Assembly (NCBI GenBank): GCA_965552055.1
Contig: CBEVQO010000001.1
Location: 256,001 to 320,000, forward strand
Direction: 5' to 3'
Origin: an uncultured bacterium
GTDB lineage: Bacteria; Hydrothermota; UBA3073; NMUJ01; CBEVQO01
DNA length: 64,000 bases
Of this stretch, positions 1 through 23,702 are shown piece after piece (the stretch's first letter is position 1; every line of letters starts with the position of its first letter). The notes under the pieces are model-generated. The model was not told where the DNA came from and ran no database searches. It saw only the letters and a program-made list of their open reading frames with translations. Position numbers and translations under genes: made by a program.

Positions 1-1207
1 AGTATTCCAATATTTTACCCATAGAGATTATATAATCCCATAAAACATAGGGAACCGAAAAAGTCTGATTTTTAATAATATAGTAATCGGCTCCAAATCG
101 TATTGCCTCCCTTATAAGTGCAAAATCATCACTTATACTAAGAACAAAAGCAGGAATCTCGGGATAAACCTCTGTAAGCTGATGCAAAATCTTGAGTCCA
201 TCGGGTTGACCGCTTTCAAGATACATGTCTACCAAGATAGCGTCAAATTTTTCTATATCCATCTCTTGGACTCCTGCATTTTCATAATTTTGAACTTTCT
301 TGCATGGCAAATATAAAACTTCCTTTTTCTCTTTCCCTTTTCGTTTCTCAATTTCCTCAAGAAGCCATCTAAAATCTTTGATTTTGCCATCAAAAATATA
401 AGTCTCAATCACAGGTTCAAATAGCAAAAATATCTCGTTTAATTTAACGTTCCCTAAGAAATTAAATCTTTCATCTATCTTTACTAAATCCTGGTCAGGT
501 CGGTTATCTATCAGAAGTAATTTAATATTACATCTTGTAAGCGTAAGCCTTATCAGCCCAGCAAACATGTTTGCTAATTGTATTAAAAAATTAGCTTCAC
601 CCTGTCCACTTGCATCGTGAACGATTTTTTCACGCCACTCTATTTCTGTATCAAAATACTTTCCCAGTTTGATGAAAACTTCCACCCACGATTTAGGTAT
701 CTTTCCCTCTAATTGAGATACACTTTGGATTCTTTCATATATTTTGTTATTTAAAATATTTTCTAAATTCTCCTTAACTTTCTCCAATTTCTCCCCTATG
801 AGATTTTTTGCATCTTCAATCATTAAATAATTAGGATTGAACGGAACACTTACATAACCTATAATCTCAGGAAATACTTTGCAGAAAAACCTGAATTCTT
901 TTGCTTTCTCATATCTCGGCTCTGCAAAAATTATTTTTTCATTTTTAGATGGGTTAGATTCAAACCCGATGATATAAATAGGAAGAGGATTAGTAAATAT
1001 TTCTTCTATAACTTTCTCAATTTTAATATCGTCATTTGAAATATCAACTTCCCCATTTTCTTTGCATAACCCTTTACATATTTTCTCTCCCAAATACAAA
1101 ATATAGCATTTGCTATTTTTTAGCCGTCCTGTTCTGTGCAAATATCGGCAGAATGATTTACATATTTCTTTAAAAATATTTCTTATGAAATAGTCTGAGT
1201 TCAACAT
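1..1207 (-). CDS. Receiver-domain protein, runs off the window edge (not in the ORF track)
   Basis: Hand translation from ATG 1207 (overlaps the upstream stop) is open to position 1: MLNSDYFIRN...KLLLIDN...FDAILVDMYLESGQPDGLKILHQLTEVYPEIPAFVLSISDDFALIREAIRFGADYYIIK, a REC fold with phosphoacceptor Asp, Ser and Lys. Confidence 0.85.
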   Translation of the reverse strand, partial: MLNSDYFIRNIFKEICKSFCRYLHRTGRLKNSKCYILYLGEKICKGLCKENGEVDISNDDIKIEKVIEEIFTNPLPIYIIGFESNPSKNEKIIFAEPRYEKAKEFRFFCKVFPEIIGYVSVPFNPNYLMIEDAKNLIGEKLEKVKENLENILNNKIYERIQSVSQLEGKIPKSWVEVFIKLGKYFDTEIEWREKIVHDASGQGEANFLIQLANMFAGLIRLTLTRCNIKLLLIDNRPDQDLVKIDERFNFLGNVKLNEIFLLFEPVIETYIFDGKIKDFRWLLEEIEKRKGKEKKEVLYLPCKKVQNYENAGVQEMDIEKFDAILVDMYLESGQPDGLKILHQLTEVYPEIPAFVLSISDDFALIREAIRFGADYYIIKNQTFSVPYVLWDYIISMGKILEY

Positions 1208-4200
1208 ATTACTTCGATATCCGGAAATGATTTACTGCACCACTCGTTCATAAATTCTTCTAATGTTGAATAACTATCCTGTGATCTTTGATCTTGATTA
1301 AATGGGCTTTGCACAATTATTTTACCTCCTTTACATGTAACTAAATAACAATCTTCAGATGGGATACCCCACTCTTTGATTATATCATTAATTTCTTTGT
1401 CTTCTTTTATTTTCTTACATAAATAACCGTCTTTTTCTAATTTTTTAATATCCTCCTCTTTAATATTTATTTCTTTATCAAAAATCAAAACTCTCTTCTT
1501 CTGGAAGAATTCTTTATTCAGTTCCTTTATTTCTTCTTCAAAACTTTTTACAAATTTAACATCTACATTTTTGCTCATTAAATAATTAATGCCTTTGTAT
1601 TTTATCCGTGGATTAGGGTCTGCACATCCTATATAAACTCTTTTTATGCCTTTCTCTATAATAAGGTCGGAACAGGATTTTTCTCCTTTAATATGTCTTG
1701 TGCAACAGGGCTCTAATGTGACATATAACTCACATTCTTTTAGGTTTATTTTCCTTTCTTCCGCTTTTCTAATTAAAATCTGTTCTGCATGAAGTTTTCC
1801 TTCCTTATGGGATTTAAGAATTACTTTTCCTTCTTTAACCAAAACTGCTCCTACTTTTGGATAATTTTTACCTTGAGAAATTATTGAGTATTCTGATTCC
1901 TTTACTGCTAATCTCATAAATTCTTTTATTTTATTTATATTGACCAAGTTCTCGAATATCTCACATATTACAGAAGCTGTAATGAGAATTAATATCCGTG
2001 GTAGCGGAGCCGATATTCGTTTTATCGGATTCACCTCGTCTTTATATTTTAATGCATTCAAAGATACATAAAATAGACTTATAAGATACTCCATTTCGTT
2101 TAATCCTGCTTCTTTCCCAAGAAGGTGAATTTTTTTCAAAAGCAAACATAAATCTTCTATATCTCTATTTCCACACCATACTTTATGAGCATGTCCTCTT
2201 GTTATTGGAGAAAAAAGTTTATACAGCAAATCTCTTTCGCACTCTATCCAGAACTTCACCGCTTCCTGCCATTTCTCATAAGTTCGTTCTCTATGCATAA
2301 TAGTATTATACAGAACATCGCTTATTATCATAAGTCTCAATTGTACCTCCATCTTTGTAAAATCATATGCCAGATGTCCCACCCCGGTATCGGCAAAATC
2401 TATTAACCAGAAATTATAACGATTATAAACATCTTTTGTCACAACAATATTCTCGGGCTGCAAATCGCCGTGAATCACTGAATAATGAAAAGTAATATTT
2501 TTTACAATTTCCCGAAACTCACTGTTTTTTTCAAACTTATGCTTGAACCAGTATATCGGATTTGGTAAAAATTCTCCAAAAATTTCATATCTATTTTCAT
2601 TTTCGTTTATCTTAATAAGTTCCTTTTCTTTTCCATTGTGTTCTTTAGGTATATCTTGATATTTACAAAACTCTTTTATTTTATTCTCAATTTCTTTAAT
2701 TTGCTTAATAAATGTTTTGTAAATCTTTGTAGCATCGGGAGCTTCATTTAATCTCAATGTTATCCTTTTACCCCTTCGTGCCAAAATGTGAGTGCATATT
2801 TCTCCCCGATTATCCTTAATTATAAAATTTGCACAAAATTTTAAATCTTTGTTTCTGTAATTGTTTGCTTTCTCCTCGTTATAAGGTTTTATTAACATTG
2901 CTTCAATCTCGTTTTCTTCTTTTTTTATTTTTTGCAACTCAAAAGTATAAATATCTCCTTCATCTTGCCATAATAAATCCATCTCTCCGTATGGCGGCAG
3001 AAGCTGGCGATAAAATTCCCGTATATCTTTATTTCCATTATTTTCTCCCACAATATTATGAATCGGTCTCAAAATTCTTCTATAAATCCATTCCACTGCG
3101 TTTTCAATTTTATTGAAATCCTTTTCTGACAAGACAAAATCTGTAAAACTCATTTGATTTTTAATTTCGTATGGAATACCTACCACGGTATAAGCAATCA
3201 AAGCTTTCTCCCTTAATGGAATAATAGGGTCTTCTATTCTTCCACAAAAATTATCGATGTAGCCTTTGATGTAAGTATCATAATTATATTTTTCTTTGTA
3301 TAATTTAGTTTTTGTATCTATTTTAATAATCCTGAATATTTCCCCTTTAGTTATCCCTTTTTCTTTTAATTGCAATCTAACGAGTCCGACCCATCCTCCG
3401 CTTTTACCGCTTGTAAATTTATAAATTATTTCTGGATTGCTTTCTTTACCAAACGCTTTTTTTGAAAACTTCATTAAAATTTCACGAATTTTATTCTCTT
3501 TGAACTCTTCTTCTTTTTCCTGTTTTTTTAAGACATAAAGGACTACCTCCTCAAGCGACCTTGGCAATTGATAAAAGAAATGTTTTTTAGGAAAATAGTA
3601 ATCTGCTCCTTCCCTAAAGGCAACATGTGCTATGTCTGCAAAATCTAATCGACTTAACATGATAATTAAAGGAAATTTATAAACTCCTCTAAATCTGGTC
3701 AAATAAGGCAATACTTTTTCTATACCCGCTAATTTGCTTCCATTGTTGGATTCGACAATATCCAAAAGTACAATGTCTATATCCGGAATCTTGTGAAGTA
3801 AATTTTCTATTTTCTTTTCGTCAAAAGTATCTTCTTTAAATACTCCTATTGGTTCTTCTTTAGATTTACAAAAAGTCCTGTTAAGGATCTCTTCTATTAT
3901 CTCAAACAATTTATTACCCTCAGTACTATTATCTTTTAGCTCATCATCTATTACGAGTATATTCCACCGAATATATTTATTACTTTTTATACTTTCTATT
4001 TCTCTTTCTTGAATCTTCGAAAAATCCCATTCTTTTTTGATAAAATAATCATGTCCATCCGTTTTCTTTTCTTGAATTGGAATAACCTTTTTTAATTCAC
4101 TTAGCCAGTCATTTTCACAAACATTTAATAACTTTATAAAATAAGAATTTACTCCATAAAAAGCATATTGCTTTTTAAAATTATCTGCGTTTTCCATGGT

Positions 4201-4509
4201 AAGTAAATAAATTTCTATTCCACATTCTTTGTTCAATGAATTAGAAATAATCTGTAAAATCCTATGAACAACATCTCTTGGTTCACCCAACTTATTAAGT
4301 TCTTCGACTCCTATTGCATCAATTATTATTTTATCTTCTATAACTGGATTCCTGAAGAAATCTTTAATACTTTTAATGGAGAAAGTGTGCTTTTCACCCA
4401 AACATTTATCATAATATCTGCGAAGAGATTCAGCCAGCTCTTTTACTTCTTCTTTTTCTTTACAGGAATGCAATAATAACATGCACTTTTTCATTTTGAC
4501 ATCTTCCAT
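1201..4509 (-). CDS. Fusion of REC domain, APH/kinase-like phosphotransferase and RibD-type Zn deaminase
   Basis: REC: ILVIDDE..IVLLDI..IMLS..GADYYFPK; kinase-like: GKSGG, IIKID, HGDLQPENI, LIDFAD; deaminase: PKVGAVLVK, HAE, LYVTLEPC..SC, DPNP. Confidence 0.85.
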   Translation of the reverse strand: MEDVKMKKCMLLLHSCKEKEEVKELAESLRRYYDKCLGEKHTFSIKSIKDFFRNPVIEDKIIIDAIGVEELNKLGEPRDVVHRILQIISNSLNKECGIEIYLLTMENADNFKKQYAFYGVNSYFIKLLNVCENDWLSELKKVIPIQEKKTDGHDYFIKKEWDFSKIQEREIESIKSNKYIRWNILVIDDELKDNSTEGNKLFEIIEEILNRTFCKSKEEPIGVFKEDTFDEKKIENLLHKIPDIDIVLLDIVESNNGSKLAGIEKVLPYLTRFRGVYKFPLIIMLSRLDFADIAHVAFREGADYYFPKKHFFYQLPRSLEEVVLYVLKKQEKEEEFKENKIREILMKFSKKAFGKESNPEIIYKFTSGKSGGWVGLVRLQLKEKGITKGEIFRIIKIDTKTKLYKEKYNYDTYIKGYIDNFCGRIEDPIIPLREKALIAYTVVGIPYEIKNQMSFTDFVLSEKDFNKIENAVEWIYRRILRPIHNIVGENNGNKDIREFYRQLLPPYGEMDLLWQDEGDIYTFELQKIKKEENEIEAMLIKPYNEEKANNYRNKDLKFCANFIIKDNRGEICTHILARRGKRITLRLNEAPDATKIYKTFIKQIKEIENKIKEFCKYQDIPKEHNGKEKELIKINENENRYEIFGEFLPNPIYWFKHKFEKNSEFREIVKNITFHYSVIHGDLQPENIVVTKDVYNRYNFWLIDFADTGVGHLAYDFTKMEVQLRLMIISDVLYNTIMHRERTYEKWQEAVKFWIECERDLLYKLFSPITRGHAHKVWCGNRDIEDLCLLLKKIHLLGKEAGLNEMEYLISLFYVSLNALKYKDEVNPIKRISAPLPRILILITASVICEIFENLVNINKIKEFMRLAVKESEYSIISQGKNYPKVGAVLVKEGKVILKSHKEGKLHAEQILIRKAEERKINLKECELYVTLEPCCTRHIKGEKSCSDLIIEKGIKRVYIGCADPNPRIKYKGINYLMSKNVDVKFVKSFEEEIKELNKEFFQKKRVLIFDKEINIKEEDIKKLEKDGYLCKKIKEDKEINDIIKEWGIPSEDCYLVTCKGGKIIVQSPFNQDQRSQDSYSTLEEFMNEWCSKSFPDIEVIC

Positions 4510-4512
4510 TTC

Positions 4513-4788
4513 TTAAAAATTCAATCCTATTACATCATCCACGAAATTTTCTTCTGAAAAAATGTAAGCAAGAACACCATGTTTATTTATTTTTACACAT
4601 TCCGGCGTATACTCCACCCCGCTCCTTCTGCCTTCAACCAATAAATTAAGCCGCATCAAGTTGCTTTCGGGGTCAAGAATATCCCTTCCCAGAATGGGAA
4701 AAGGTGCAGAATGAGGGTCGAGGAATATTCCGGCTTCGCCTTTGAATATTTTAAACTTTTCTCCGTTGCCGATTATCATAGTATCCAA
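4513..4788 (-). pseudogene. Truncated clan-AA (retropepsin-like) aspartyl protease
   Basis: Keeps C-terminal PILGRDIL but lacks the catalytic DTG; follows a small DUF5678-like gene as such proteases commonly do. Confidence 0.45.
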
Positions 4789-5036
4789 ATTTTGTCCCTG
4801 TATGGTATTTTTATTATAATAGCAAATTTTATTCTATCACCGAGTTTTTGTTTTAGCTCGTCGATAGTTTTCCCGCTGTGAATCTCATCTCCTATAATTG
4901 CGACAAATTTACCGCGGTATTTTTTCCATATTTCAGCAGAGTGTTTGGCAAAGGTCTCCATTGATTTTTTGCCTATTTCAAATATTTCTCTGGTCTCATG
5001 ATCTAACTTAATTTCCCCAACATACTTCATAGCCAT
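4776..5036 (-). CDS. Small DUF5678-like protein
   Basis: IWKKYRGKFVAIIGDEIHSGKTIDEL pattern, 86 aa. Confidence 0.6.
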   Translation of the reverse strand: MAMKYVGEIKLDHETREIFEIGKKSMETFAKHSAEIWKKYRGKFVAIIGDEIHSGKTIDELKQKLGDRIKFAIIIKIPYRDKIWIL

Positions 5037-5039
5037 AAC

Positions 5040-5870
5040 TTACTGCCCCTTTTTATCCTCATTTCCTTTGACATCGCTCTTTCCTGAGTATTCCTTCTTG
5101 ATTTCTTCCAATTTCCGCATCACATTACAGAACCACTGATGAAAAGGATTTTGCTCAGGATTTTCTGCCCATTTTTTGAATTTATCAATATCGAATTCAT
5201 TGGGTAAACCCAAATTTATGTTATCACAATTAAACATTTGTAAAATCGCTTCCTTCTTATCATCCTCCAATTTCGCTCTCTCTATTTCTTTTCTGGCTTG
5301 ATCACATAAATTTTTAAACCTATCTTTGGGTGATGTATTTTTAAATGCCTCATTATAATATTCCTCTGCCCATTTTTCTTTCGTCTTGCCTTGTGGTGGT
5401 TTAAAATCATTCTTCAACACCTCACAAATCCCCATCAAATCAATATCCATTGGCAGAAAAAGGTGAGCAATGCGGTGGAGAAGGAGGGTAATTTGCTCTT
5501 TTACTTTATTTTTTTTTAATTCTTCAATCACACTATAATCGCATTTTTCTATTCTATTTACTATTTCCCTTTCTGTAGTATGGAATCCCAATATCTCGAC
5601 ATTAATGTTTTCTTGTTGAGCAACTTCACACAATTTATTATAATTTTTGTCTCCTTCTCCTTTATGAATCACTATTATGTTTATATTTTTGTCTGTTGCA
5701 AATTTCAGGTAATAAGGAAATGCGTCATGATTTCTTTCTCCTGCAATGAAAAACCAGTTACCAACTTGTTTATATTCAATTTGTTTGTTATCCAGTATTA
5801 CTACTTCGCTATCTACTTTTATCTCATTGAATGTATTTGTATGAATAACAAGGACTTTTTCGGCATTCAT
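5040..5870 (-). CDS. Uncharacterised protein; alpha/beta N-terminus and His-containing helix (possible phosphorelay partner)
   Basis: ATG 5870 overlaps the upstream stop (ATGA); LLHRIAHLFLPMDIDLMGI helix; function inferred. Confidence 0.55.
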   Translation of the reverse strand: MNAEKVLVIHTNTFNEIKVDSEVVILDNKQIEYKQVGNWFFIAGERNHDAFPYYLKFATDKNINIIVIHKGEGDKNYNKLCEVAQQENINVEILGFHTTEREIVNRIEKCDYSVIEELKKNKVKEQITLLLHRIAHLFLPMDIDLMGICEVLKNDFKPPQGKTKEKWAEEYYNEAFKNTSPKDRFKNLCDQARKEIERAKLEDDKKEAILQMFNCDNINLGLPNEFDIDKFKKWAENPEQNPFHQWFCNVMRKLEEIKKEYSGKSDVKGNEDKKGQ

Positions 5871-8323
5871 TTTAACACCCCCCAAAATACTCTATATTTT
5901 TTCTCAAAAAGATCATCGGGTTCAAGCCCTCTCATAAAAACAGACCTGTCTATCAGTCGGCTATTCGCCCACAAGCATTTCTGTAAAATATCGTGACTTA
6001 GGGGTCTTGCTCTACCTGTAACTATTCTTACATATGGAGGTAAATTATCGGGTTCGATTTCATATAAATCTTGTCTAACATCCAACATTCCCAAATGGAA
6101 TACTACACAATCGTAATTTTTTAAGTCAGGGAAACTGTCTTTATTTTCGGGAATGATAAAAATATTAATTTTTTCCAAATCTTTTAAACTTCCTTGAAAC
6201 TTATCATACAATTCATTATCGATTATTAAAATCTTGAAAGCCAAAATAGAACATATTTCTAAACCAACTATTTTCTTCTTGCAATCATCCGCATTTTTTA
6301 AATAACAATTCTCTTCCTTCCTCCCAAAATATCTACATATTCTATAAGTGGGGTCGTGTGAAAAGGTCAATTTTCTAACATTTTTGTGATTACATTCACG
6401 CGGATGACAAAAATGGAATTCTAAATTATTAGATTTTTTACAATCAATAAGCTGTTCTATTTTCCTCCAGTATTCCATTTGCCAGCCTTTTTTTTGACTA
6501 TTTTCACAGACTTCACAGAATTTTATTTCTATACCTCTATCTTTAAATATTTTATCCCACCATTTTTCAAGCAATAAACAATACTTTTCTTGTTCATTCT
6601 TACATTTACTATATTCATCTTCTTCAATGAAAATACTCCTTCTTTTAATCCAATTTAACCACTTTTTCCATTTATCGTCTAACTGTAGATTTTCCTCTTT
6701 CCCAATCCAGCATATTCTTTGTGGTAAAACACTCCAATTTTGTAAAATAAAGAAACTATCAGAAGGATTAACAACCAGAAAATCTGGTTTTACTTCTTTG
6801 CCTGCTTTAATTCTCTCAATTGTATTTTTATCTCCTTCACTCACATATTTTGCCAGTGGTATTTTAAATTCGTAACTAATGCCATTACCATCTTTAATAG
6901 CCTTTAATTCTCCACCTGCCAACCCCAGCGTTCGCCCGATTAACATATTTGCACATATACGCATCTCCTTTATTCCGGGGTTTTCGAAATCGGTTTTGCC
7001 CTGCTCATCAATTATTTTGCTATTTTCTATAATATTGTTTATTTTTCTTACTATATCACCACTATTATCAACAACATAATTGGATTTAATCCAAACGCGT
7101 GCAAACTTATTTTCTTTTTTAACGGAAAATTTTATGGTAGGGCCTCTTTCTTTATTTTTAGAAGGAGGTTTACAATGTTTCAATACATTTCTTACATAGT
7201 TTTCAAAAATAATGTAAATAGCATGGACGCCTATTTCTCCATATCCCGGGCTTACAATCAATTCATCGTCACATTCGGGTTTGTCTATTATAACAAGCTC
7301 CCTACCACTTGCCTTTGCAAAAAAATTTACAAAAAGTTTCACTCCTTCATCTGCTTTTTTATATCCTTCGACAGTTTGCAGATATTCTAGTGCATTTTTT
7401 AAATTAACCTTACCTTCACAAATAGGGTCGTATACATTGATGATATTAAGTAAAGCAGTTTTTTCATTTATGTATTGCAGATATTTTTCAACGCCATCTG
7501 GGTTATTTTGGAGTTCATTCTTCGTTAATCGGGGAATTACATGTGAGCCGTGATGATGTGTAAAATTTCGTATCATTATAGCGGCGACAGCCGAGCGGAG
7601 AGCATAGCGAGTTAGATTAAACTTTTCATAGCGATAAATTTCTAAAGAAAGTCTGTCTATAAAAAAAGGCAGTGCGAGTCTTCTTATTTCTTCCACTTGT
7701 TCTCGCATTAGACATTCATTAATTGCAAACTCTATACCTCCTACTCCTAGCTCTTTAAAGAATGGAATATGATAGATGTATAAAACTTCATTGGATTTAA
7801 TCTCAAGCCATTCTCTCAATTTGATAGTATAATAGAAGTACACATATTCAAAGTCCTCTTCCTTATACTTATCGAAATTTTCTTCAAAACCTAACCATTT
7901 AAGAAATTTTTCTACTTGATTTCTAAAATCTTCAATATCTTCAGGGAATTCAAAACAACGCACATCAGGAAATTTTTTAGCTTTACCTGATATCAGACAA
8001 ACAGGTTCTTTTAAATATTTAGGAGGTAGATAAAAGATACGCAAAAAACCAAAGCGTTTTTTAAGGGCACTTTTTATTACTTTTTCTGGTAGCCGTTTTC
8101 TCCTTAAATACTCTTCAAATTCTTTTTCAAATTTGATATTAAACGAAGATGTGTCTTCCTCCTTAAACTTGCCATTCTTAGTTCGTATAAAGTTTTTAGA
8201 ATAAGATAAGTCAAAATCTCCTTTTTCTTCATTAAACATAGCAAAAAAGAACGCTATAGAACACGCAATATTTTTCGACCCTAGTTCGCTTTGTAATCTT
8301 TCAATAAACGCTAACTCTTCCAT
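5867..8323 (-). CDS. Atypical cytoplasmic histidine kinase-like protein (GAF-like region, DHp-like helix, HATPase_c, degenerate receiver-like C-terminus)
   Basis: SAVAAIMIRNFTHHHGSHV (H-box-like), IFENYVRNVLKH (N-box), GIKEM, C-terminal KILIIDNE..VVFH..IVTGR; no transmembrane segment. Confidence 0.65.
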   Translation of the reverse strand: MEELAFIERLQSELGSKNIACSIAFFFAMFNEEKGDFDLSYSKNFIRTKNGKFKEEDTSSFNIKFEKEFEEYLRRKRLPEKVIKSALKKRFGFLRIFYLPPKYLKEPVCLISGKAKKFPDVRCFEFPEDIEDFRNQVEKFLKWLGFEENFDKYKEEDFEYVYFYYTIKLREWLEIKSNEVLYIYHIPFFKELGVGGIEFAINECLMREQVEEIRRLALPFFIDRLSLEIYRYEKFNLTRYALRSAVAAIMIRNFTHHHGSHVIPRLTKNELQNNPDGVEKYLQYINEKTALLNIINVYDPICEGKVNLKNALEYLQTVEGYKKADEGVKLFVNFFAKASGRELVIIDKPECDDELIVSPGYGEIGVHAIYIIFENYVRNVLKHCKPPSKNKERGPTIKFSVKKENKFARVWIKSNYVVDNSGDIVRKINNIIENSKIIDEQGKTDFENPGIKEMRICANMLIGRTLGLAGGELKAIKDGNGISYEFKIPLAKYVSEGDKNTIERIKAGKEVKPDFLVVNPSDSFFILQNWSVLPQRICWIGKEENLQLDDKWKKWLNWIKRRSIFIEEDEYSKCKNEQEKYCLLLEKWWDKIFKDRGIEIKFCEVCENSQKKGWQMEYWRKIEQLIDCKKSNNLEFHFCHPRECNHKNVRKLTFSHDPTYRICRYFGRKEENCYLKNADDCKKKIVGLEICSILAFKILIIDNELYDKFQGSLKDLEKINIFIIPENKDSFPDLKNYDCVVFHLGMLDVRQDLYEIEPDNLPPYVRIVTGRARPLSHDILQKCLWANSRLIDRSVFMRGLEPDDLFEKKYRVFWGVLK

Positions 8324-9851
8324 CTTTCTTCCTCCATCTTATTAAGCTTACCGTTTTTCTCCCAATAATAATATCTTTTGCCTCATAAATACTTATTCCA
8401 TTTCTAGACTCAGGAATTCCTTCTTTTTCAATAGTCCATCCATAATCTTTAAAAAGATTATAAATAATATAATCTCTAATAAGCCAATATTTTTCTTGTA
8501 ATTTAATCTCATCGTTCTCTTTTCTAAACACTTTCGGCTCATTTTCTGTCAAAAATTCAATTTTTCTTTTTATTTCCGCTAATTGATTATTTTTATTAGC
8601 ATATTCTTCTAATCTCTTTTCATTAATCCCTAAAGGTTTATTTAATCCTTTTAAGCCCATAATCATTTCTCTAACAAAAATTTCATGCTCATGCATTTTT
8701 CTATACCATCTTATAGGTAAAATGCCTGCTTCTATTCTTGCTTTATATTCTTCATATTCTGCAGCATTTTCAAAAATATAGCCATTGTAGTATTGATAAA
8801 TCCCTATTCCAATACCTATATTTCCGAGCGCACGGATCTTATATTCTTCATACTTAGTATAATTCTCTGGTTTTTTAACATACCAGTCTCCACTCCAATT
8901 TTGATAACCATTTTGTGTTAATTTTTCATGGATAAAAATTTTCGCTTTTATAAATCCATCTTCTGATAAGAAATCTTCTTTTCGGTATGTTTTTAATAAA
9001 ATTTCTCTATCCTTTTTGCGAGGAGCAAACCAAAGCTGATACCATGTGATGGAAGGCGGTCCTATTTCTAAAATTTTGTTAACATCCTCTCTAATAATTT
9101 CTGAATCTTGCTTAGGTAAACCATAAATCATATCTAAATTCCAATTGTTAAATTCATATTCCTCTATCCATTTAATTGTTTGCTCATAATTTTTGTTTGA
9201 CCTTCCCATTTCCTCCAACACATTCTTATTAAAAGTTTGAATACCAAAGCTCAAGCGTGATACTCCATATTTTTTCATAATTTCAAATTTCTTCTCGTTC
9301 ATAGTTTCTGGATGCAATTCCATTGCAATTTCTAAACCAGTTTTATTTATTTTTTTTCTTAGAGGCTCCACAATTTCTTCGAATAATTGTTTTAAATATT
9401 CTTCATCCAAAGCCGAAGGTGTTCCTCCACCGATATAAATTGATGTGATTTTATCCCAGTATTTAAAATATTCACTAAGTATTTCGAGTTCTTTCTTCAG
9501 TAGGTCAATATACTTTTTTTGAGTAGGATAATTTCCTTTTCTTTCTTTTCTCTCTTTTCTTTCTTCAGCTAGACTCCATTTTATAAAATAACAATATTTA
9601 CATTTTCGAGCACAAAATGGAATATGAATATAAAATGTTGTCTCTTGCGGTTTACTAAATATTTTCTCATATTCAAATGGCTCGAATTCTTTTTCGCCGA
9701 GTCGCTTTATTTGTGTTAACGGACCTACCGGAATATGAGAAAAAACAAAATCATATTCAAAAGGGCTGAAAGTGAAGCCCAGTTTCCTTAATTCATCGAT
9801 TTTTCGCTCCTTAAATTTATCTTCAATCTCTTTAGGCCAATTTTCTTTCAT
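8301..9851 (-). CDS. HemN/HemW-like radical SAM protein
   Basis: YIHIPFCARKCKYC (CX3CX2C), IYIGGGTPS, RLSFGIQTF, NLDMIYGLPKQ; ATG 9851 overlaps the upstream stop. Confidence 0.85.
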   Translation of the reverse strand: MKENWPKEIEDKFKERKIDELRKLGFTFSPFEYDFVFSHIPVGPLTQIKRLGEKEFEPFEYEKIFSKPQETTFYIHIPFCARKCKYCYFIKWSLAEERKERKERKGNYPTQKKYIDLLKKELEILSEYFKYWDKITSIYIGGGTPSALDEEYLKQLFEEIVEPLRKKINKTGLEIAMELHPETMNEKKFEIMKKYGVSRLSFGIQTFNKNVLEEMGRSNKNYEQTIKWIEEYEFNNWNLDMIYGLPKQDSEIIREDVNKILEIGPPSITWYQLWFAPRKKDREILLKTYRKEDFLSEDGFIKAKIFIHEKLTQNGYQNWSGDWYVKKPENYTKYEEYKIRALGNIGIGIGIYQYYNGYIFENAAEYEEYKARIEAGILPIRWYRKMHEHEIFVREMIMGLKGLNKPLGINEKRLEEYANKNNQLAEIKRKIEFLTENEPKVFRKENDEIKLQEKYWLIRDYIIYNLFKDYGWTIEKEGIPESRNGISIYEAKDIIIGRKTVSLIRWRKKDGRVSVY

Positions 9852-10951
9852 TTTACATGTACCCATTTACCTTTAGAGAATTCCTTTATTGCCAAATGAT
9901 AAAACACATTGCCATTCTTTTGAATTGAAAGTACTCCTAAAAGAGACGGATAATTTTTTACATTTTCTTTTGCTTTTTTAATGATATCTTTTCCTTTGGC
10001 ATTTATCGGTAAAGACTGCATTACCTTTTCTATTATTTTAGCAATTTCGTAAGCCATTAGAGCATCTAAATCCGGTTCTTTTTTAAATTTTTTATAATAT
10101 CTTTCTCTAAATGTAACATATTTTTTGGCATTTTTATCTATATTGAAATCGAGTGCATATACCCCTTCCATTGCTTCACCGGCTGTATTTATTACCTTAG
10201 GATACGCTATCTCGAAAGACCCTATAATAATTCCTTCGAATTTATTTTCTTTTAACGACTTTATTAAATTCCCCAGCACACTTCCATAACCTATAAGGAC
10301 AACCGCTGCTGGCCTGAAAGAAAGAGCTTTCGTGACTACTGACCTTATATCTGCTTTTTCTTTAGAGAAACTCACTTTTTTAATCTTATTATCTGTTAAT
10401 TTCTCAAATTCTTTTAAGAAACCCAATCCAAAGTCATCGTTTATATAAACTACACAAATCTCATTATATTTGATATTTCTTAGGGACAAAAATTTTAGTA
10501 TTTCTTTTGCTTGATTCTCCGGCGTAGGAATAAATTTAATAATATTATCGTTGTCCTCCGTTAACCCCGGAGCAGCAGCTATTGCAAATAATGCTTTATT
10601 ATCTTTTATTATAAGAGGCTTTAATGCATTACACACACTACTCATACACCCTATTATTATAGAAATATTCTTCGGTACAATAAATTGATGGTAGATTGAA
10701 AGTGCAGTTTTAGGATCGTTTTTACTATCATAAATAAATAACTCACATTTTAAAGGTGTCTTTTCCTTCCAAATTAGAATACCGTTTCTGTTACTTTCTC
10801 CAAATTCCGCAGCACTCCCCGTCAGTGGCAATATTGCTCCTATTTTTATTACTTTTTCTTCTTTCTTGCAGGATGTGAGCGTAAATGAAACAAGAAGAGC
10901 ACCTACCATTAATCCCGCCAATATCTTTTTTATTACACTCATACCTTTCAT
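9848..10951 (-). CDS. Lipoprotein solute-binding protein (LivJ/LivK-like, type I periplasmic binding fold)
   Basis: GGAGGTG SD before ATG 10951; lipobox LTSC; IKIGAILPLTG..G; DSKNDP; no ABC permease or ATPase nearby. Confidence 0.85.
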   Translation of the reverse strand: MKGMSVIKKILAGLMVGALLVSFTLTSCKKEEKVIKIGAILPLTGSAAEFGESNRNGILIWKEKTPLKCELFIYDSKNDPKTALSIYHQFIVPKNISIIIGCMSSVCNALKPLIIKDNKALFAIAAAPGLTEDNDNIIKFIPTPENQAKEILKFLSLRNIKYNEICVVYINDDFGLGFLKEFEKLTDNKIKKVSFSKEKADIRSVVTKALSFRPAAVVLIGYGSVLGNLIKSLKENKFEGIIIGSFEIAYPKVINTAGEAMEGVYALDFNIDKNAKKYVTFRERYYKKFKKEPDLDALMAYEIAKIIEKVMQSLPINAKGKDIIKKAKENVKNYPSLLGVLSIQKNGNVFYHLAIKEFSKGKWVHVK

Positions 10952-10999
10952 TTTACACCTCCCGTTTTTTATCTTTAATTCACCCATACCCTCATTAAT

Positions 11000-11026
11000 A
11001 ATATACAAACTCCGTGACTTTGTCAA
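11000..11026 (-). promoter_or_regulatory. Promoter of the signalling operon, TTGACA-N15-TATATT
   Basis: TGTCAA 11021-11026 and AATATA 11000-11005 on the + strand. Confidence 0.6.
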
Positions 11027-11123
11027 TAATTTTTTAAAATTCATAATCCATTGCCTTTTCTTCAAAAATATACCCTGCTCTCCTTTCATATCCTCAAATT
11101 TTGTGCGATATCCGCACATTGTT

Positions 11124-11246
11124 CTAAAAACGCACACTCCTTATTGTTTTTATCAGAAATTTAACAAATGCCAGAATAATGCAAATACACACCACTATTA
11201 TACAAAACAATATCACAATTTTGATTATGACCTTCAGCATCCACAT
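11124..11246 (-). CDS. 40-aa hydrophobic membrane peptide
   Basis: MWMLKVIIKIVILFCIIVVCICIILAFVKFLIKTIRSVRF; ATG 5 nt after a TTGACA-N15-TAAATT promoter. Confidence 0.5.
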   Translation of the reverse strand: MWMLKVIIKIVILFCIIVVCICIILAFVKFLIKTIRSVRF

Positions 11247-11251
11247 CTTTA

Positions 11252-11314
11252 AATTTAGTGATAATTGAAAATTGTCAATAAAATTTGTTGACATTGTCGC
11301 ATTTTCGTTAAAGT
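11252..11314. promoter_or_regulatory. Divergent promoter pair, both with 15-bp spacers
   Basis: Minus strand TTGACA(11278-11273)-N15-TAAATT; plus strand TTGACA(11288-11293)-N15-TAAAGT. Confidence 0.65.
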
Positions 11315-11323
11315 AAAAGAAAA

Positions 11324-12817
11324 ATGCTTTTATTTTGTATTTTGCTATATATTTCGCAACATTATATGACAGGTCAAAAATATTTCTTCATTTACAAAAA
11401 CTATGAAAAAGCATTAATTGAGTTTCACAAAGCCCTCGATGAATCTTCATATGAGCTCAAAGGTGAAATCTTTCACTTTATAGGACTCTGCCATTTTTAT
11501 CTAAAACATTATGATAGTGCAATTGTGAATTTCAGCAAAACAATCGAGTATAATAAAGGTTGCGCAAGCGCTTACGCATATAGAGCAATTTGTTATTATC
11601 ACTTAAATGAAATTGAAAAAGCCAAAAATGACATTGATAAAGCTTTGAAAATGAAAAAAGTCCCTGTTTATTTCTATTTCAAAGGATTAATTTACGAAAA
11701 AATGAAAAATTATAAAGAAGCTCTGGACGCTTACAAAAATTATATTGATATGGAACCTTATGGTGAATATTGTGAAGAAGCCAGAAGAAGATTAAAGTGC
11801 ATTTTTGCAAAAATTAAAGAAGATAAAAAACCTCCAGAAATAATAATAACTTCGCAGTGGTATAATCCTCTAAAAAATGTTTACAGGATAAAATCGGATT
11901 CAATCCTTTTAGAAGGGTATGCCAAGGATGAGTCAGGGATAGATTATGTTATCATAAATGGTGAAAAGACAGGTGCCTCATTTAAAAAAGTTTTTCATAT
12001 TGATAACAAACTTACGATCTTTATAAAAGCAGTGGACAAAGCAGGAAATCAAAGTTTTAAAAAGTTAACCATAATAAAGGAGAAAGAAGGGAAAACAATT
12101 GATTTATGGCTATTCGCTATTGGCATCTCAAAGTATGCCAACCCTCATTACAATCTATTGGCGCCTGAAAATGATGTCAGAGAAATTGTGAAAATATTTA
12201 AATCAGAAACTTTGCTGTTTACGGAAGTTTTTGTAGAAACCTTATTAAACGAGAATGCGAATAGAAAAAATGTCTTAAGAAAAATGAAAGAATTTTTAAG
12301 TTCGGCTGGCGACGAAGATATTATTATTTTCTTCTTCTCTGGACATGGAGCGCGTTCAGGTAACCGAAGCGCTATGCAACTTTATGATGATTTATTAACC
12401 GCAGATGATATACAAAATGTTTTACAGAAATTATCATTTATTCCCCAGAAATGGATTTTCTTACTTGATTGTTGCTTCTCCGGCTGGATAATAAAAAGCA
12501 CGGAAGAAACAGAAGGAATAGTTGAAGAACTTATGGAAAGAATAACTGAATGTAAATTCAGATGTGTGCTTGCATCATCAAAACCAAATCAGATTTCAGT
12601 GTCACTGGGAAAACATGGTGCCTTTACTCTGGCACTTATTAAAGGACTTAAAGGCGAAGCAGATGAAGATAAAGATGGTATAATTACGATTCACGAATTG
12701 TGCAGATATGTATCTTATAAAGTGCCCATAATCACTCATGGATTACAGGAGCCTTATTTTAACATAAAGATTACAGGGACACAGATTGATGTCCCGATTT
12801 ATACTGTTAAATATTAA
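11324..12817 (+). CDS. TPR repeats, Ig-like linker and caspase-family (peptidase C14) domain
   Basis: TPR helices; AIGISKY, FFFSGHG (His), LDCCFSG (Cys), HGAFTLALIKGLKGEADEDKDGIITIHEL. Confidence 0.9.
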   Translation: MLLFCILLYISQHYMTGQKYFFIYKNYEKALIEFHKALDESSYELKGEIFHFIGLCHFYLKHYDSAIVNFSKTIEYNKGCASAYAYRAICYYHLNEIEKAKNDIDKALKMKKVPVYFYFKGLIYEKMKNYKEALDAYKNYIDMEPYGEYCEEARRRLKCIFAKIKEDKKPPEIIITSQWYNPLKNVYRIKSDSILLEGYAKDESGIDYVIINGEKTGASFKKVFHIDNKLTIFIKAVDKAGNQSFKKLTIIKEKEGKTIDLWLFAIGISKYANPHYNLLAPENDVREIVKIFKSETLLFTEVFVETLLNENANRKNVLRKMKEFLSSAGDEDIIIFFFSGHGARSGNRSAMQLYDDLLTADDIQNVLQKLSFIPQKWIFLLDCCFSGWIIKSTEETEGIVEELMERITECKFRCVLASSKPNQISVSLGKHGAFTLALIKGLKGEADEDKDGIITIHELCRYVSYKVPIITHGLQEPYFNIKITGTQIDVPIYTVKY

Positions 12818-15534
12818 ACTTTGACGCCCGCTTCTTTTAATTTGATTTGTATCATCGCTTTGACTCTTTCAGGTAAAGGATGCCAGTCAAATCCGTACTT
12901 TTGTTTATGTTCTTCCGCCCTCATTCGCAACTCCTTTTCTGTACCTTCTTCTTTATGAAGGTCGAAATATTCTTTTAACTCGTCTATATCCATTCCATTT
13001 ATTTTTTCTTCCAGTTTTTTCATTAAATCATCGTAAAAATTTCTTGCTTGCCTTATGAAATTTCCTTTGCCCTGTATTCTTCTTCCATCAAATTCGTACC
13101 AGTTACGGCTCCTCTTTACCACTCCTATTTCTATAAGAGTCCACAATAAATTTTCATCCACTTGTGCCAGACTCGGTAATATTTCGCGCATATTTGCCAC
13201 TATTTCTCTATCCATGACATCAAAATAGGAAGTCAAAGGCTCTAAAGGTTTGAATTTTTTTGCCTTAATCTCACTTTCGATTATTTCCATTGATTCTACT
13301 CTTTTTTCCCAATATGAATTAAAGTACTTCTCTAATTTCTCTTGTCCAAGCATTTCTATCTCTACACAAAATGTAAAATTGATAAACACCGCTCGATCTG
13401 TAATCCCTTCCTCTTGTTGTTCTTCAATTATATTATTTATCCTTCCTCCTGCCATTCTCTTTATATCCTGATTACCTGTTATCAAAAATTGTTCTTTGCG
13501 CGCACCTTGAGAGGTAAGCAAAAGTAAAGGGTCACTAACTCTATCGCAAATCTTACTTATCAGTTCGTTCATTTCTTTAGGATTTATTATTTTTTCTCTT
13601 ATAAGATCAGAAAGCGAAATATTTATGCTATCTATTTCTTTTTGTGCTCTCTCTTTCAACCATTGCTCACATTGTTGGGGTTCGTTCAGGAAAGTTTCTA
13701 AACTTTCACAAAAATCTCTCTTAATATCCTCGATTCTTCCTCTTATCTTTTTATTGAATATTTCTCTCAAATTAGCATCGCTCACTCCTATATATCTGAC
13801 ATTTTCGGCACGCAACATCTTTTCCCTCGCTCTTCCTCTTTCTAAATCGCATCTCTCTTTAATACTCCTTAACTTCGATTCTAATCTTCTATACTTTTCA
13901 CTTATAGGTGCTATTTCTTCCATTATTCTGCCCATCATTATATCGTATACTTCTTTACTTACCCGAGCTTCCAGACAATTTTGATGATATTGCTGTAATC
14001 TTCTGACAAAACTGGGGGCATATTTTTTAATTATTCTTCCTTTGAATAGTGTCTTCCTGCATTCCATAGCGATATTCGTGCGCATTCTTTCTAAGTCCTT
14101 TCTTTCTTGATGCACCCTTGGTTGTTTCCCTGAAAAATAATCCTGATACCTTCTTAAATATTCATTCGCTTTCTGCTCAAATCTTGCATGACATTCATTT
14201 AAAAATCTCAAAATGTCAGAAAGTGACCTATTACATATATTTAAAAAGCGACCTCTTATTTGGTTTATCACCTCATTCGCAATTTCATCCAATTCACTTT
14301 CTATTCTCCTCAATTGGTTCACAATATCCGAATTTACCTGTCTATAAACCTTTTCCATATCTGCTATTCCTTTTATTTCTCTTGAAGTAACAGCCGGAAT
14401 GGAAATCCTTTGGAATATTTCTTCAAACCTGTTTATAAAATTGTTAATTTCATTCTCATATGAAGTCGCTGTATCCGAAAGCAAATTTTCTATTGTTTTT
14501 ATTAAAAGTTCAAATTTAAGCCATTCATCTACCTCTTTTTTTGGATACTCAATTACTTCCGAATAAATCCCTCCCAATCTTTTCGAATAATCTATTGTGA
14601 TATCGCGATTTATCTGTGCATAAATTTGACCAAGTGAATCTTCGAGACCTGTGAGTAGCCGATAGATGACTTCAGAGATTATACCAAGGGCCGACAATCT
14701 TCTTCCTCCGAGGTCTACTTTGTTGTTAGAATTATCAAGTATAAACATAGTATGAAACAAAGGAGATGTAAAAACTCGAATGTTACCTCCTCCATAATCC
14801 ACCTGCCATGTTACATTTCTATTTCTATGAAAATAATTTACGTCTTTTAAAAATGCATAAAAATTGCCGATTGCACATTTTTCATCTTCTGTATATTCAA
14901 GACTTCCAGATAGAACTTCCGGCGCTATTATGAAAACCTTTAAGTAGTCAGGACCCACTTTATCACTTATCAGTCCAATTACATCAAGCAGAAGTCCACT
15001 GCCTGTTCCTCCGGATGCCGATGCAATGATACATACCATTTTTTTGCCATCAGAAACAGGAGCATTTGTTCTGGTTATATAGTTAGCAATAGTCTTTCGG
15101 TCAAAAACATGATCAATTTTTCTTTTTATTCCATCATTTACATTTTTAAAATTAAGGAATAAAGCAAGACGCCCTGCCTGACGAACCTGACCGACTCCTC
15201 CTCTCCTGGTTTCGTATGAAGGAACATAACCAGAAAACCACTTCGCAATGTGTCTTTCCTCACCTCGATGAACCCGGTTAATAATTTCCTCAACCTGTTG
15301 TTTATTTAAAACTGCCTGGATTGTGTCTATCGAAATTTCTCTTAAAAATTCGGGCTCGTCTATTTCCTGTTCAGAAGAAGTATCAATATGCAAAATGTCA
15401 ATAATGTCGGGCAATCCCGTTTCTCTGTTTAAATATTTCTCCGGAATGCGCTTCTGAATAAGATATTTCAAATATTTGCCCCCAAGCTTGCCTGTCCCCC
15501 CAAGCCCTACCACTAAAGTGGGAACCAATTTCAT
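12814..15534 (-). CDS. Tubulin/FtsZ-like GTPase domain with long helical C-terminus
   Basis: VVGLGGTG, GGVGQVRQAGRLAL, ASASGGTGSG signature loop; about 550 aa helical tail. Confidence 0.85.
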   Translation of the reverse strand: MKLVPTLVVGLGGTGKLGGKYLKYLIQKRIPEKYLNRETGLPDIIDILHIDTSSEQEIDEPEFLREISIDTIQAVLNKQQVEEIINRVHRGEERHIAKWFSGYVPSYETRRGGVGQVRQAGRLALFLNFKNVNDGIKRKIDHVFDRKTIANYITRTNAPVSDGKKMVCIIASASGGTGSGLLLDVIGLISDKVGPDYLKVFIIAPEVLSGSLEYTEDEKCAIGNFYAFLKDVNYFHRNRNVTWQVDYGGGNIRVFTSPLFHTMFILDNSNNKVDLGGRRLSALGIISEVIYRLLTGLEDSLGQIYAQINRDITIDYSKRLGGIYSEVIEYPKKEVDEWLKFELLIKTIENLLSDTATSYENEINNFINRFEEIFQRISIPAVTSREIKGIADMEKVYRQVNSDIVNQLRRIESELDEIANEVINQIRGRFLNICNRSLSDILRFLNECHARFEQKANEYLRRYQDYFSGKQPRVHQERKDLERMRTNIAMECRKTLFKGRIIKKYAPSFVRRLQQYHQNCLEARVSKEVYDIMMGRIMEEIAPISEKYRRLESKLRSIKERCDLERGRAREKMLRAENVRYIGVSDANLREIFNKKIRGRIEDIKRDFCESLETFLNEPQQCEQWLKERAQKEIDSINISLSDLIREKIINPKEMNELISKICDRVSDPLLLLTSQGARKEQFLITGNQDIKRMAGGRINNIIEEQQEEGITDRAVFINFTFCVEIEMLGQEKLEKYFNSYWEKRVESMEIIESEIKAKKFKPLEPLTSYFDVMDREIVANMREILPSLAQVDENLLWTLIEIGVVKRSRNWYEFDGRRIQGKGNFIRQARNFYDDLMKKLEEKINGMDIDELKEYFDLHKEEGTEKELRMRAEEHKQKYGFDWHPLPERVKAMIQIKLKEAGVKV

Positions 15535-16877
15535 GTTCCCTCCTCCTTCTCCTCCTCTAAAATTGATATGCTAATCCTACCTCTTACCGGGTCCACAACT
15601 GTTATCTCAAACTTATATCTGTTAAATTCTATTAATTTAGGATTGGTATCCCTTATTTCTATTTTATCTGTCTCCCGACCTTCATACCTCATTGCAGCTC
15701 CTTCACCCGAACTCACTTCAAAATAATGCTCAAATTTTTCTTCGTCAAGAAAATGCCAGATCGTAAAAGAAATCTTTTCGGGAATATTCCCCATAAATTG
15801 ACATCTTCTACCTGATTCAAATATACGGCATTTCCCTTCGGGTATCACAACTTCAATGTAATTTTTAGTTTCCCTGCTTTTACATATTCCACTGTAAACC
15901 ACAAAAATCACAATAACACCTGCAATAGCAAATAATACCCATATAGGGAAAGGTCGCTTACACAAAATTAATATTTGACCATCAGGTGGCTCGACTTCCA
16001 GCCTCACATTTTCCGCATTAAATGAGATACCAAGTTTGTACACACCCGTGTGTTTAAATCCTTTTAAGCGCAAAACAAATTCTTTTTCTTCTTTTTTACC
16101 AGTGCATATAAATGTATTCGGATAAATCTCAACTTCTGTTCCTTCGGGCAAATTTCCTTTCCATGATAAAAACACTTTCTTATTTTTCGATTTCCATGCC
16201 TCTCTTATCAAAATTTTAAATTTCCTTTCTACCAAACCTGCAGTCGGGTGTATTTTTATTTTCCTTGTTAATAATTTAATCTGAATAAAAGGAGGTATTC
16301 CTCCTGCCTGTGGTGGTATGTTATCCATTATTTCTGCGTGCGTCTGACTGGCAAACTCTTTAAGTCCCGGATGCTGAACTTTGCTCCCGTATTTTATAAG
16401 GTAAATGTAAGGTTTCACAAGCTGGAAATTTTCTTTGTAATATTTAATGATATCAGATGCAGTTACACTGGGAGACGCATTACCATAATCCGGCTCGCCA
16501 TCTGTCAAAATATATAACCTACATTCCCTGTCAGGATATGCCTGATAAAGCTCTTTTAGCCTTTTCAACGCAAGGTCTATCGCTTCCCACATCCTCGTAT
16601 AGCGCTGATTGAACTTCAAAGCGTCAATTTTTCTGCAAATCAAAGGTTTATTCTCATCGCTTATCACTTCATTGATGAATTCTTCATAAGAATCTCCAAA
16701 TTTTATTATTACTATTTTTTCGCCATTCTGTCGTGACAAAATATAATTTTTGAGGTCGCGCTTCACCAGGTAATCGAGTTTGCGCTGATGCATACTGCCC
16801 GATACATCCACAAGGAAAATATAATTTTGAAAATATGTTAACTTTTGCATGATAACTGCAAGTAAAATTATCCACAT
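15531..16877 (-). CDS. vWA-domain single-pass membrane protein
   Basis: MIDAS DVSGSM..T..LTDG; TM IWVLFAIAGVIVIFVVYSGI; AGGAGG SD; stop overlaps the tubulin-like ATG. Confidence 0.85.
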   Translation of the reverse strand: MWIILLAVIMQKLTYFQNYIFLVDVSGSMHQRKLDYLVKRDLKNYILSRQNGEKIVIIKFGDSYEEFINEVISDENKPLICRKIDALKFNQRYTRMWEAIDLALKRLKELYQAYPDRECRLYILTDGEPDYGNASPSVTASDIIKYYKENFQLVKPYIYLIKYGSKVQHPGLKEFASQTHAEIMDNIPPQAGGIPPFIQIKLLTRKIKIHPTAGLVERKFKILIREAWKSKNKKVFLSWKGNLPEGTEVEIYPNTFICTGKKEEKEFVLRLKGFKHTGVYKLGISFNAENVRLEVEPPDGQILILCKRPFPIWVLFAIAGVIVIFVVYSGICKSRETKNYIEVVIPEGKCRIFESGRRCQFMGNIPEKISFTIWHFLDEEKFEHYFEVSSGEGAAMRYEGRETDKIEIRDTNPKLIEFNRYKFEITVVDPVRGRISISILEEEKEEGT

Positions 16878-20783: not shown

Positions 20784-20791
20784 CGTTCCCC

Positions 20792-21286
20792 CTATTTTCC
20801 ATGGAATTTATGAAAAGCTATTATCGCTTCCATAAATTCTGTTAATTTTTCTTTATCTTTTTCCTCACAATTGTCTATTAAAGTCTGAGTAACCTCAAAG
20901 AACAAATCATCAATTACCCCCTTGCCTTTAGCATATGCGAGTAACGGCATCAGCCTCTGCAAATCATTTTTTATATCCGTCGAAGTTTTGGTCATACGCT
21001 TCAGTTCGTTAAAAAATTTTCTCAGTTGTCGCATCTTAATATCAGAACAATAAGCAACCATTTCGGCCAATCCATCAAGTCCCACTCTCACTTTTTCAGA
21101 AAGATTAAAAAAATCGCGGGCTTTGTTTTTTATGTATCTCTTAATATCCTCCTTGAGGTTTTTCTTTTCTCTTTGAAGTACTTGATTTTGTTGCTTTTGT
21201 TCGCGTTTATCAGTAATTTTTTTAATTTCTTCGTTTCTTCTTTTTATTTTTTTAAACTCTCTTTGCAACTTTTCAAACTCATTCAT
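20792..21286 (-). CDS. csm2: Type III-A small subunit Csm2
   Basis: QLRKFF, PLLAYAKG, FMEAIIAFHK; lies between cas10 and csm3. Confidence 0.9.
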   Translation of the reverse strand: MNEFEKLQREFKKIKRRNEEIKKITDKREQKQQNQVLQREKKNLKEDIKRYIKNKARDFFNLSEKVRVGLDGLAEMVAYCSDIKMRQLRKFFNELKRMTKTSTDIKNDLQRLMPLLAYAKGKGVIDDLFFEVTQTLIDNCEEKDKEKLTEFMEAIIAFHKFHGK

Positions 21287-23663: not shown

Positions 23664-23668
23664 CATAA

Positions 23669-23695: not shown

Positions 23696-23702
23696 GAAAA
23701 AA

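Follow-up and report, generated by a model that had tools for sequence, protein, structure and literature searches.

What would a bacterium sense with a kinase encoded between a substrate-binding protein and an enzyme on one side and receiver-bearing enzymes on the other? The question is raised by a stretch of 64,000 nucleotides from an uncultured member of the Hydrothermota (assembly GCA_965552055.1, contig CBEVQO010000001.1, positions 256,001 to 320,000; G000:C1:256001-320000 in our numbering, hereafter the window), where eight minus-strand open reading frames (ORFs) occupy positions 1-10951. The initial annotation took these eight co-oriented ORFs for a candidate undescribed phosphorelay system. 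All eight are present, but the operon comprises 17 genes over about 19 kb; homologs of the system co-occur across many phyla, against the outcome that would have refuted the initial reading, and the system recurs and is apparently unnamed. It is real, widespread and apparently undescribed in the literature that we searched; we found no published description, although subscription journals and supplements lay outside that search and a brief prior mention is possible. Below we show that the input genes of this system are exchanged between loci as a unit, and we give an even chance to a reading in which a small molecule is imported, converted and sensed, with a relay, autoinduction and variable enzyme outputs downstream.

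A recurring importer-enzyme-kinase layout

Species-representative genomes scanned for the exact H-box motif of the kinase yielded 63 loci, and a metagenome scan confirmed 199, of which 80 were kept. The genome loci are titled as Bacteroidota, Acidobacteriota, Calditrichia, KSB1, Deltaproteobacteria, Planctomycetales, Verrucomicrobia, Alpha- and Gammaproteobacteria, Clostridia and a few archaeal bins; these last (Aenigmatarchaeota, Pacearchaeota, Methanobacteriota and Heimdallarchaeota; L021, L022, L046 and L060 in our locus labels) may reflect transfer or mis-binning. Within the window's own phylum 6 of 151 genomes match, one of them marginally, and G035, G103, G014 and G118 share the layout. 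The genes recur in the order importer, none to three enzymes, kinase (sometimes split), a partner protein of 200-470 residues (P2), at least one receiver (REC) fusion and, often, an NtrC-type activator. Counting only loci with at least 4 kb of upstream flank (11 of 63 genome and 46 of 80 metagenome loci fell short of this), 47 of 52 and 33 of 34, respectively, have an importer gene no more than 6 kb upstream. LivH/M are present in 30/30 genome and 13/14 metagenome loci of LivK type that span at least 15 kb, and five importer types (Liv, SBP_bac_5, NMT1, SBP_bac_3 and SSF) replace one another across the family.

An enzyme gene or a long fused N-terminal extension was present in 73 of the 86 scorable loci. 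The occupants of this slot are diverse: radical SAM, B12-radical SAM, several methyltransferases, HMGL-like, isopropylmalate-dehydrogenase-like, PTPS with GTP cyclohydrolase I, AlaRS core, NAD-synthase-like, amidohydrolase, polyprenyl synthase, peptidase M24, PALP, aminotransferase V, citrate-lyase-like, PLP decarboxylase and FabH-like proteins. The kinase itself is fused to a radical SAM domain (motif intact) in L024, L049, L072, L074 and L113, and to a methyltransferase in L060, L069 and L077. These fusions and the lack of a strongly hydrophobic segment in 117 of 126 family kinases (the window's kinase has none) both fit sensing inside the cell.

The window follows this layout. Its binding lipoprotein, P0006, had been considered an orphan, an interpretation that we rejected, as LivH, LivM, LivG and LivF lie on the same strand 13-17 kb downstream and complete a HAAT (LivKHMGF) importer with one binding protein, two permeases and two ATPases; LivH and LivM are each single-copy in this genome, and an importer recurs across the family loci. 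The domains first assigned to the eight ORFs (Peripla_BP_6, HemN-like radical SAM, TCAD9/APH kinase plus deaminase, and REC) were all upheld. The HemN-like enzyme described as sitting inside the signalling core, P0005, belongs to a large set of interchangeable cassette enzymes and is not a fixed member of the core. It scores below every NCBIfam equivalog cut-off, including those of HemN, HemW and ChuW, and in other loci different enzymes replace its type, so a fixed radical SAM role, or heme chemistry, was rejected as a family trait.

The 818-residue kinase, P0001, had been called atypical, and rightly so: it is modelled with a histidine-kinase fold, yet it has no Pfam match at E≤0.05 (HisKA, HisKA_2 and HWE_HK included), no NCBIfam match and no PADLOC match. 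Its structure model is confident from about residue 240 (pLDDT<50 for residues 1-234), and in this modelled fold P0001 is a hybrid histidine kinase, Foldseek placing the hybrid kinase ShkA (6qrj) first (E=3.3e-7) and listing HK853 at E=9.7e-7. Language-model leads (scores <0.9) suggest a GAF domain and an HWE/HisKA_2 kinase. Fifteen other family kinases likewise gave no Pfam match at 1e-4 except for fused enzymes. A family profile searched against 1.84 billion sequences, clustered at 50% identity, recovered 2,876 cluster representatives at E≤0.001, of which 2,515 reach E≤1e-10; word-indexed protein searches returned only 11-13 relatives and understate the size of the family. Of 143 profile matches not picked by the motif, 136 showed the H-box region, with the first histidine (H256) in all 136 and the second in 134. 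Alignment of 122 cores showed E374, R378 and G450 in every one and N379 in 120, while the G1-box aspartate occurs in 102 of the 122 and is Ser414 in P0001. The terminal receiver-like domain carries Asp702 in 122 of 123 members, an (S/T)GRG motif and, in 121 of 123, a histidine (His743 in P0001) in place of the phospho-aspartate. The sub-clade formed by the window, G035, L069, L070 and L071 has a distinct H-box, RNFxHHHGSH.

P0001 resembles the soluble hybrid kinases ShkA and HK853 in joining DHp, ATPase and receiver-like domains, but differs from them in its two-histidine H-box (RNxSHNxGSH), its WGxxEM G2 box, the lack of a Pfam match and the invariant histidine and (S/T)GRG of its terminal receiver. 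Receivers without a phospho-aspartate are known, and the operon's 161-residue receiver-like protein, whose family has Glu or Asp at that site, is of the common Glu type. In the part of the published survey that we cite, however, Arg, Lys and His together make up 4% of residues at that position (PMC4395418), whereas His is nearly universal in this kinase family.

The partner protein P2 occurs in 46 loci, always one to three genes behind the kinase, with its conserved histidine in 39 of 47 alignment rows, and it is predicted to be a phosphotransfer protein. Foldseek returned nothing for it at E≤1e-3, and a wide fold search gave generic matches only (TOPRIM, Z 9.2; four-helix bundles, Z 7.7; BaeR receiver, Z 7.1). 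A predicted complex between P2 and the P0004 receiver scored 0.01, which tells neither way.

Exchange of input cassettes between kinase cores

The kinase core and P2 of the window are closest to those of L069 and G035 (70% and 62%), which have other enzymes. The core of L072 is only 31% alike, though the closest radical SAM domain (51%, fused to the kinase there), the closest sensor (37%) and the best non-self match of the binding protein among related loci (36%) are all found in that locus. We examined this pattern by asking whether the best match of each protein comes from a locus with the same enzyme. Of the 86 scorable loci, the 73 with an enzyme or long fused extension were strictly dereplicated to 62, and for 44 of these another locus shared the enzyme. 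For these 44, the best match shared the enzyme in 30 cases for the binding protein, in 25 for the sensor and in 6 for the kinase core, against 2.0 by chance. Where the sensor match was significant (n=26), the corresponding figures were 25, 24 and 5. On the LivK tree the enzyme label, including ThiH, which is our presumed assignment, needs 11 changes (minimum 10), as against 18 on the core tree (22.9 when shuffled). Moreover, a clade of the window and L072 was rejected on the core tree by the approximately unbiased (AU) test (p=0.00017) but not on the LivK tree (p=0.51), and the five members of the window's core clade (the window, G035, L069, L070 and L071) have five different input enzymes.

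Two sequences locate the junction. The kinase P0010, whose sensor is 89% identical to that of P0001, keeps this identity over residues 1-271 and then continues as a main-clade core. A contig of 1,491 nucleotides from run X1 matches positions 6513-7591 of the window, with its first 424 nucleotides unaligned from codon 245, inside the motif RSAVAAIM. The two are reciprocal recombinants that break at the same motif, before the H-box, in opposite directions. These results show that binding protein, enzyme and sensor travel as one cassette, apart from the kinase core, and that the switch occurs at RSAVAAIM.

Outputs, feedback and extent of the operon

Both window outputs, P0003 and P0004, are receiver-enzyme fusions, as first described, and both have an intact REC. 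In P0003 the motifs of the REC (D188-D189, D250, S286, K308/309), the kinase (H680-G-D682, D704) and the deaminase (H907-A-E909, C935, C946) are preserved; its one full-length homolog is P0022 (35%), and L050 carries the kinase and the deaminase on two adjacent genes. P0004 retains the REC residues D234, D327, S357 and K379 and the HD-type residues H438, H490-D491, H510, H569 and D634, the HD domain being assigned from its motif where Pfam returned REC alone; homologs lie behind the kinase in L024, L054, L115 and L121. The two proteins likely modify nucleotides. Across 49 genome loci with 4 kb of downstream sequence, 43 encode an Asp-bearing REC, 34 a non-NtrC REC fusion and 15 the NtrC type. 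Among the outputs of other loci are adenosine deaminase (11 loci), multi-pass membrane proteins (20 loci), proteins with two or three transmembrane (TM) segments (16 loci), methyltransferase, Maf, HD-CE with CYTH and nucleoside hydrolase, and Schlafen AlbA_2. A conserved His helix ahead of every output REC was considered and rejected, as it is present in some clades and absent from both window outputs.

The outputs had been described as enzymes rather than DNA-binding proteins. This does not hold for the whole operon, which ends in a REC-sigma54 AAA+ activator and thus has a transcriptional output as well. Upstream DNA was readable for 55 operons; a strict sigma54 site precedes 10 of the 18 that have a GAFTGA-type activator and 2 of the 37 that lack one (expected 0.65 and 1.48), which shows that the presence of the activator is linked to that of the site. 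The operon's activator is 61% identical to that of G035 and 37-42% identical to the paralogs in its own genome, which also encodes RpoN. In G035 an intact TGGCAC-N5-TTGCA sits within the spacer of the sigma70 promoter; the window promoter is in register with it, but the GG and GC of the sigma54 site both read GT, so that in this operon the feedback loop may have been lost or changed. With this site decayed, the window operon is probably driven from the sigma70 promoter. A three-way promoter alignment was poor for L110. Upstream lies a 17-bp palindrome that has its sole perfect match in the 2.2-Mb genome here; near-matches occur upstream of 4 of the 18 operons with the activator and of none of the 37 without it, although three of these four had served to derive the pattern, which leaves a single independent hit.

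The single promoter proposed in front of the genes is present, 47 nucleotides ahead of the first start codon, and ranks among the two best of 66 sigma70-like sites in 1-13000, a total that is not above shuffles (60.3 ± 8.2). The gene overlaps reported initially are all in the sequence (ATGA at 9848-9851 and 5867-5870, and further overlaps at 8301-8323 and 1201-1207), and gaps of 4 nucleotides each lie at 5036/5040 and 4509/4513. The binding protein starts at ATG 10951 and the radical SAM enzyme at ATG 9851; the true start of P2, listed before as a 281-residue ORF from an upstream TTG, is ATG 5870. To the left of position 1, where the initial annotation proposed to look, the same strand runs on unbroken for nine more genes (Table 1).

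Table 1. Position of the features of the operon in the window, or on contig G000:C1 where so marked.
Feature	Position	Strand	Description
17-bp palindrome TGTGCG-N5-CGCACA	11102..11118		Candidate NtrC-type activator binding site
Sigma70-like promoter TTGACA-17-TATTAT	10998..11026	-	11/12 consensus; spacer contains decayed sigma54 -24/-12 site
LivK-type binding lipoprotein P0006, 367 aa	9848..10951	-	Peripla_BP_6, E=5.5e-33; part of input cassette
HemN-like radical SAM enzyme P0005, 516 aa	8301..9851	-	CxxxCxxC intact (C80, C84, C87); part of input cassette
Variable soluble sensor region, P0001 aa 1-244	7592..8323	-	End of input cassette
Conserved kinase core, P0001 aa 245-818	5867..7591	-	H-box H256/H261, N-box E374-R378-N379, G450-E453, receiver-like domains
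Partner P2 (P0002), 276 aa	5040..5870	-	Alpha/beta domain and four-helix bundle with conserved His132; model pLDDT 91
DUF5678 gene (86 aa) and 91-aa ORF	4513..5036	-	DUF5678, E=3e-6; neither clusters with proteins of other loci
Output P0003, 1102 aa	1201..4509	-	N-terminal domain, REC, TCAD9/APH-like kinase, RibD-like zinc deaminase
Output P0004, 844 aa (5' half inside window)	1..1207	-	REC, then HD-type domain
Genes beyond P0004	G000:C1, left of the window	-	Porin O/P, 161-aa Glu-type receiver-like protein, lone REC, LivH
Genes continuing leftward after LivH, to 247773 on G000:C1		-	WD40-like fragment, LivM, LivG, LivF, NtrC-type activator (REC-sigma54 AAA+), ending the operon

Some of these genes are probably inserted passengers, namely the DUF5678 gene and the 91-residue ORF, for which no counterparts were seen in related loci. 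L069 and L130 also carry two-gene inserts directly behind P2, of 80 and about 117 residues, which we take to resemble toxin-antitoxin-type pairs; the position right behind P2 is a possible insertion hot spot. Passenger genes also lie among the Liv genes, where the window's operon has the WD40-like fragment (L001 13657-14052) and others occur at L004 8840-9250 and 10225-10644; those of G035 and L067 are presumably of the four-helix-bundle type. The porin O/P gene (L001 15749-16648), inside the operon, had no homolog in the other loci.

The operon lies between a type III-B (left) and a type III-A CRISPR locus, with caspase-TPR, tubulin-like and vWA genes adjoining. Directly after the activator (L001 536-9727) come Cas6, a 35-repeat array with a third repeat type, type III-B genes and a Csm6-like CARF gene. 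On the other side, window positions 11324-16877 hold the caspase-TPR gene (plus strand) opposite the vWA and tubulin-like pair (minus strand), a pair that adjoins the system in three loci only (the window, L110 and locus L159 of G103). Positions 17004-27396 hold type III-A cas genes, two CARF genes and a pair of arrays that differ in their repeats (24800-25156, at least 6 copies; 26433-27396, 15 copies), and past the array, at 27592-33431, lie an RNA ligase, AAA_14-DUF4143, an AbiEii nucleotidyltransferase and MutS.

Mechanism and competing explanations

In the mechanism that we propose, the dedicated ABC importer would likely bring in a small molecule, which the adjacent enzyme would likely convert; the soluble sensor region of the kinase is predicted to recognise the product, and the kinase would then pass phosphate via P2 to the receivers on the output enzymes and on the sigma54 activator, which would likely induce the operon itself, that is, autoinduction. 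We infer every phosphotransfer step. Several points weigh against this proposal. No known phosphotransfer protein appears among the P2 matches in Foldseek or the wide fold search, and the P2 histidine motif is out of register with the HisKA boxes. Ser414 occupies the G1-box aspartate position of P0001, and therefore the window copy may bind ATP poorly. The activator is found in only 15 of the 49 genome loci, and 13 of the 86 scorable loci have no enzyme in the slot. Some slot enzymes (GTP cyclohydrolase I with PTPS, polyprenyl synthase, FabH-like) ordinarily act on the cell's own metabolites and so agree better with synthesis than with conversion. As to the exchange of cassettes, the trees were quick LG+G4 reconstructions, with 31 hand-labelled LivK loci only, either P0010 or the X1 contig could be an assembly chimera, and the loci were chosen by the H-box motif and include kin that are not independent.

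The closest precedent for the proposed logic is the Lsr system for AI-2 (LsrACDB, LsrK, LsrR), in which, in the part of the account cited, an importer takes up a molecule, an enzyme converts it, the product is sensed and the importer operon is induced (PMC5983913). Importer and modifying enzyme share one operon here too, in an Lsr-like logic. Compared with what that account describes, however, the sensor here is a histidine kinase with a relay instead of a repressor, the enzyme and importer types are interchangeable, and the outputs include enzymes. No LsrK sugar kinase, LsrR repressor or LuxS was seen, and no LsrK or LsrR Pfam family is found among the operon's 17 genes.

Instead of converting an imported compound, the cassette enzyme could make a private autoinducer that exits the cell and is re-imported and sensed by kin, in a form of quorum or kin sensing with specificity groups. 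We consider this unlikely, even though the polymorphism of the cassette mirrors staphylococcal agr, where agrB/agrD and the sensor domain change together, the kinase domain remains conserved and feedback is positive, as the excerpted account has it (PMC5007282). In both systems the signal-specific genes and the N-terminal sensor co-vary on a conserved kinase; as far as that excerpt goes, the present one differs in its soluble sensor, in small-molecule enzymes in place of AgrB/AgrD, in its importer and in exchange across phyla, and Pfam found no AgrB family in the 17 genes of the operon. The sigma54 feedback and the biosynthetic type of several enzymes also speak for a self-made signal, but no exporter recurs among the neighbourhood clusters, the enzyme-sensor fusions would self-activate, and an enzyme is absent from 13 of the 86 scorable loci, though these are possible listeners.

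It is rather doubtful that the system responds to infection or to a danger molecule from neighbours, with the relay licensing nucleotide-depleting or membrane effectors. The REC-adenosine deaminases found in other loci match CARF_ADA (E 1e-77 to 1e-82 in 3 of 3 tested), and Cad1, a CARF-adenosine deaminase, converts ATP to ITP and arrests growth, according to the portion of the report cited (PMC11645235). The likeness to the protein described there is confined to the deaminase region of the family's c14 outputs, which have REC in place of CARF; these outputs occur in G103 and 11 related loci and are absent from the window. Other outputs (HD, deaminase, Schlafen AlbA_2, HD-CE/CYTH and multi-TM proteins), the patchy spread within the window's phylum and the type III-A and III-B flanks here point the same way. 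From the neighbouring caspase, tubulin-like and type III CRISPR genes, the initial annotation had suggested a defence island. The CRISPR flanks stand for this genome, but a family-wide island is not supported, the flanks of the family being mostly not defence genes: in a scan of 132 of 224 flank proteins from 47 genome loci, 7 match PADLOC at E≤1e-15, a figure with no baseline for comparison, and 4 of these are convincing (a CARF nuclease, two BrxL and PDC-S27). PADLOC (version 2.0), which had been proposed as a check, named no system for the eight genes (weak partial matches to dCTPase, E=1e-4, and PDC-M51A, E=4e-6), and among 55 output and neighbour proteins 6 match at 1e-5, the three deaminases among them, and 49 do not. 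Further outputs seem metabolic or regulatory (methyltransferase, HisRS, Maf with a dihydroorotate-dehydrogenase-like domain).

A conserved core with variable effectors, the TCAD9 kinase in P0003 and the adjacent tubulin-like and vWA genes also recall the ternary conflict systems. The operon has no MoxR/vWA or GTPase core, however, and none is found among the recurring clusters; for its part, the passage of the survey that we cite reports no histidine kinase among vWA-associated effectors (PMC7159879). Defence is a possible live purpose for some clades and not a demonstrated property of the family, and it can be compatible with import, conversion and sensing, as their downstream purpose. Finally, importer, enzyme and NtrC-type activator with a sigma54 promoter form the usual layout of a catabolic operon, but that this is an ordinary nutrient or cofactor operon whose kinase only tunes expression is very improbable, given that it usually has one or two unrelated enzymes rather than a pathway, that these fuse to the kinase, that several REC-enzyme outputs have no connection to the input enzyme and that the cassette is exchanged at a fixed junction.

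The chemistry of the proposed import-convert-sense relay is of a known kind, His-Asp phosphotransfer, while its system-level organisation matches no described system that we found. A kinase family of about 2,500 clusters without a Pfam model stands in a fixed importer-enzyme-sensor layout across many phyla, and its invariant His-type receiver may be a phospho- or ligand site of a new kind. In each cassette an orphan enzyme comes together with a binding protein and a sensor, so that the ligand is approachable by metabolomics and binding assays, and the natural junction before the H-box is a possible chassis for swappable biosensors. If the outputs are immune effectors, cell-to-cell chemical signalling would be joined to defence. 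We also put forward, as a speculation more likely wrong than right, that the system is a recombining chemical code across phyla, in which the cassette would define a strain's private small-molecule signal, read by a new kinase family with a His-type receiver and leading to autoinduction and immune-type effectors such as a Cad1-like ATP deaminase. Were this true, small-molecule kin or danger signalling would be wired to population-level defence, and the cassettes would offer a map to dozens of signal molecules.

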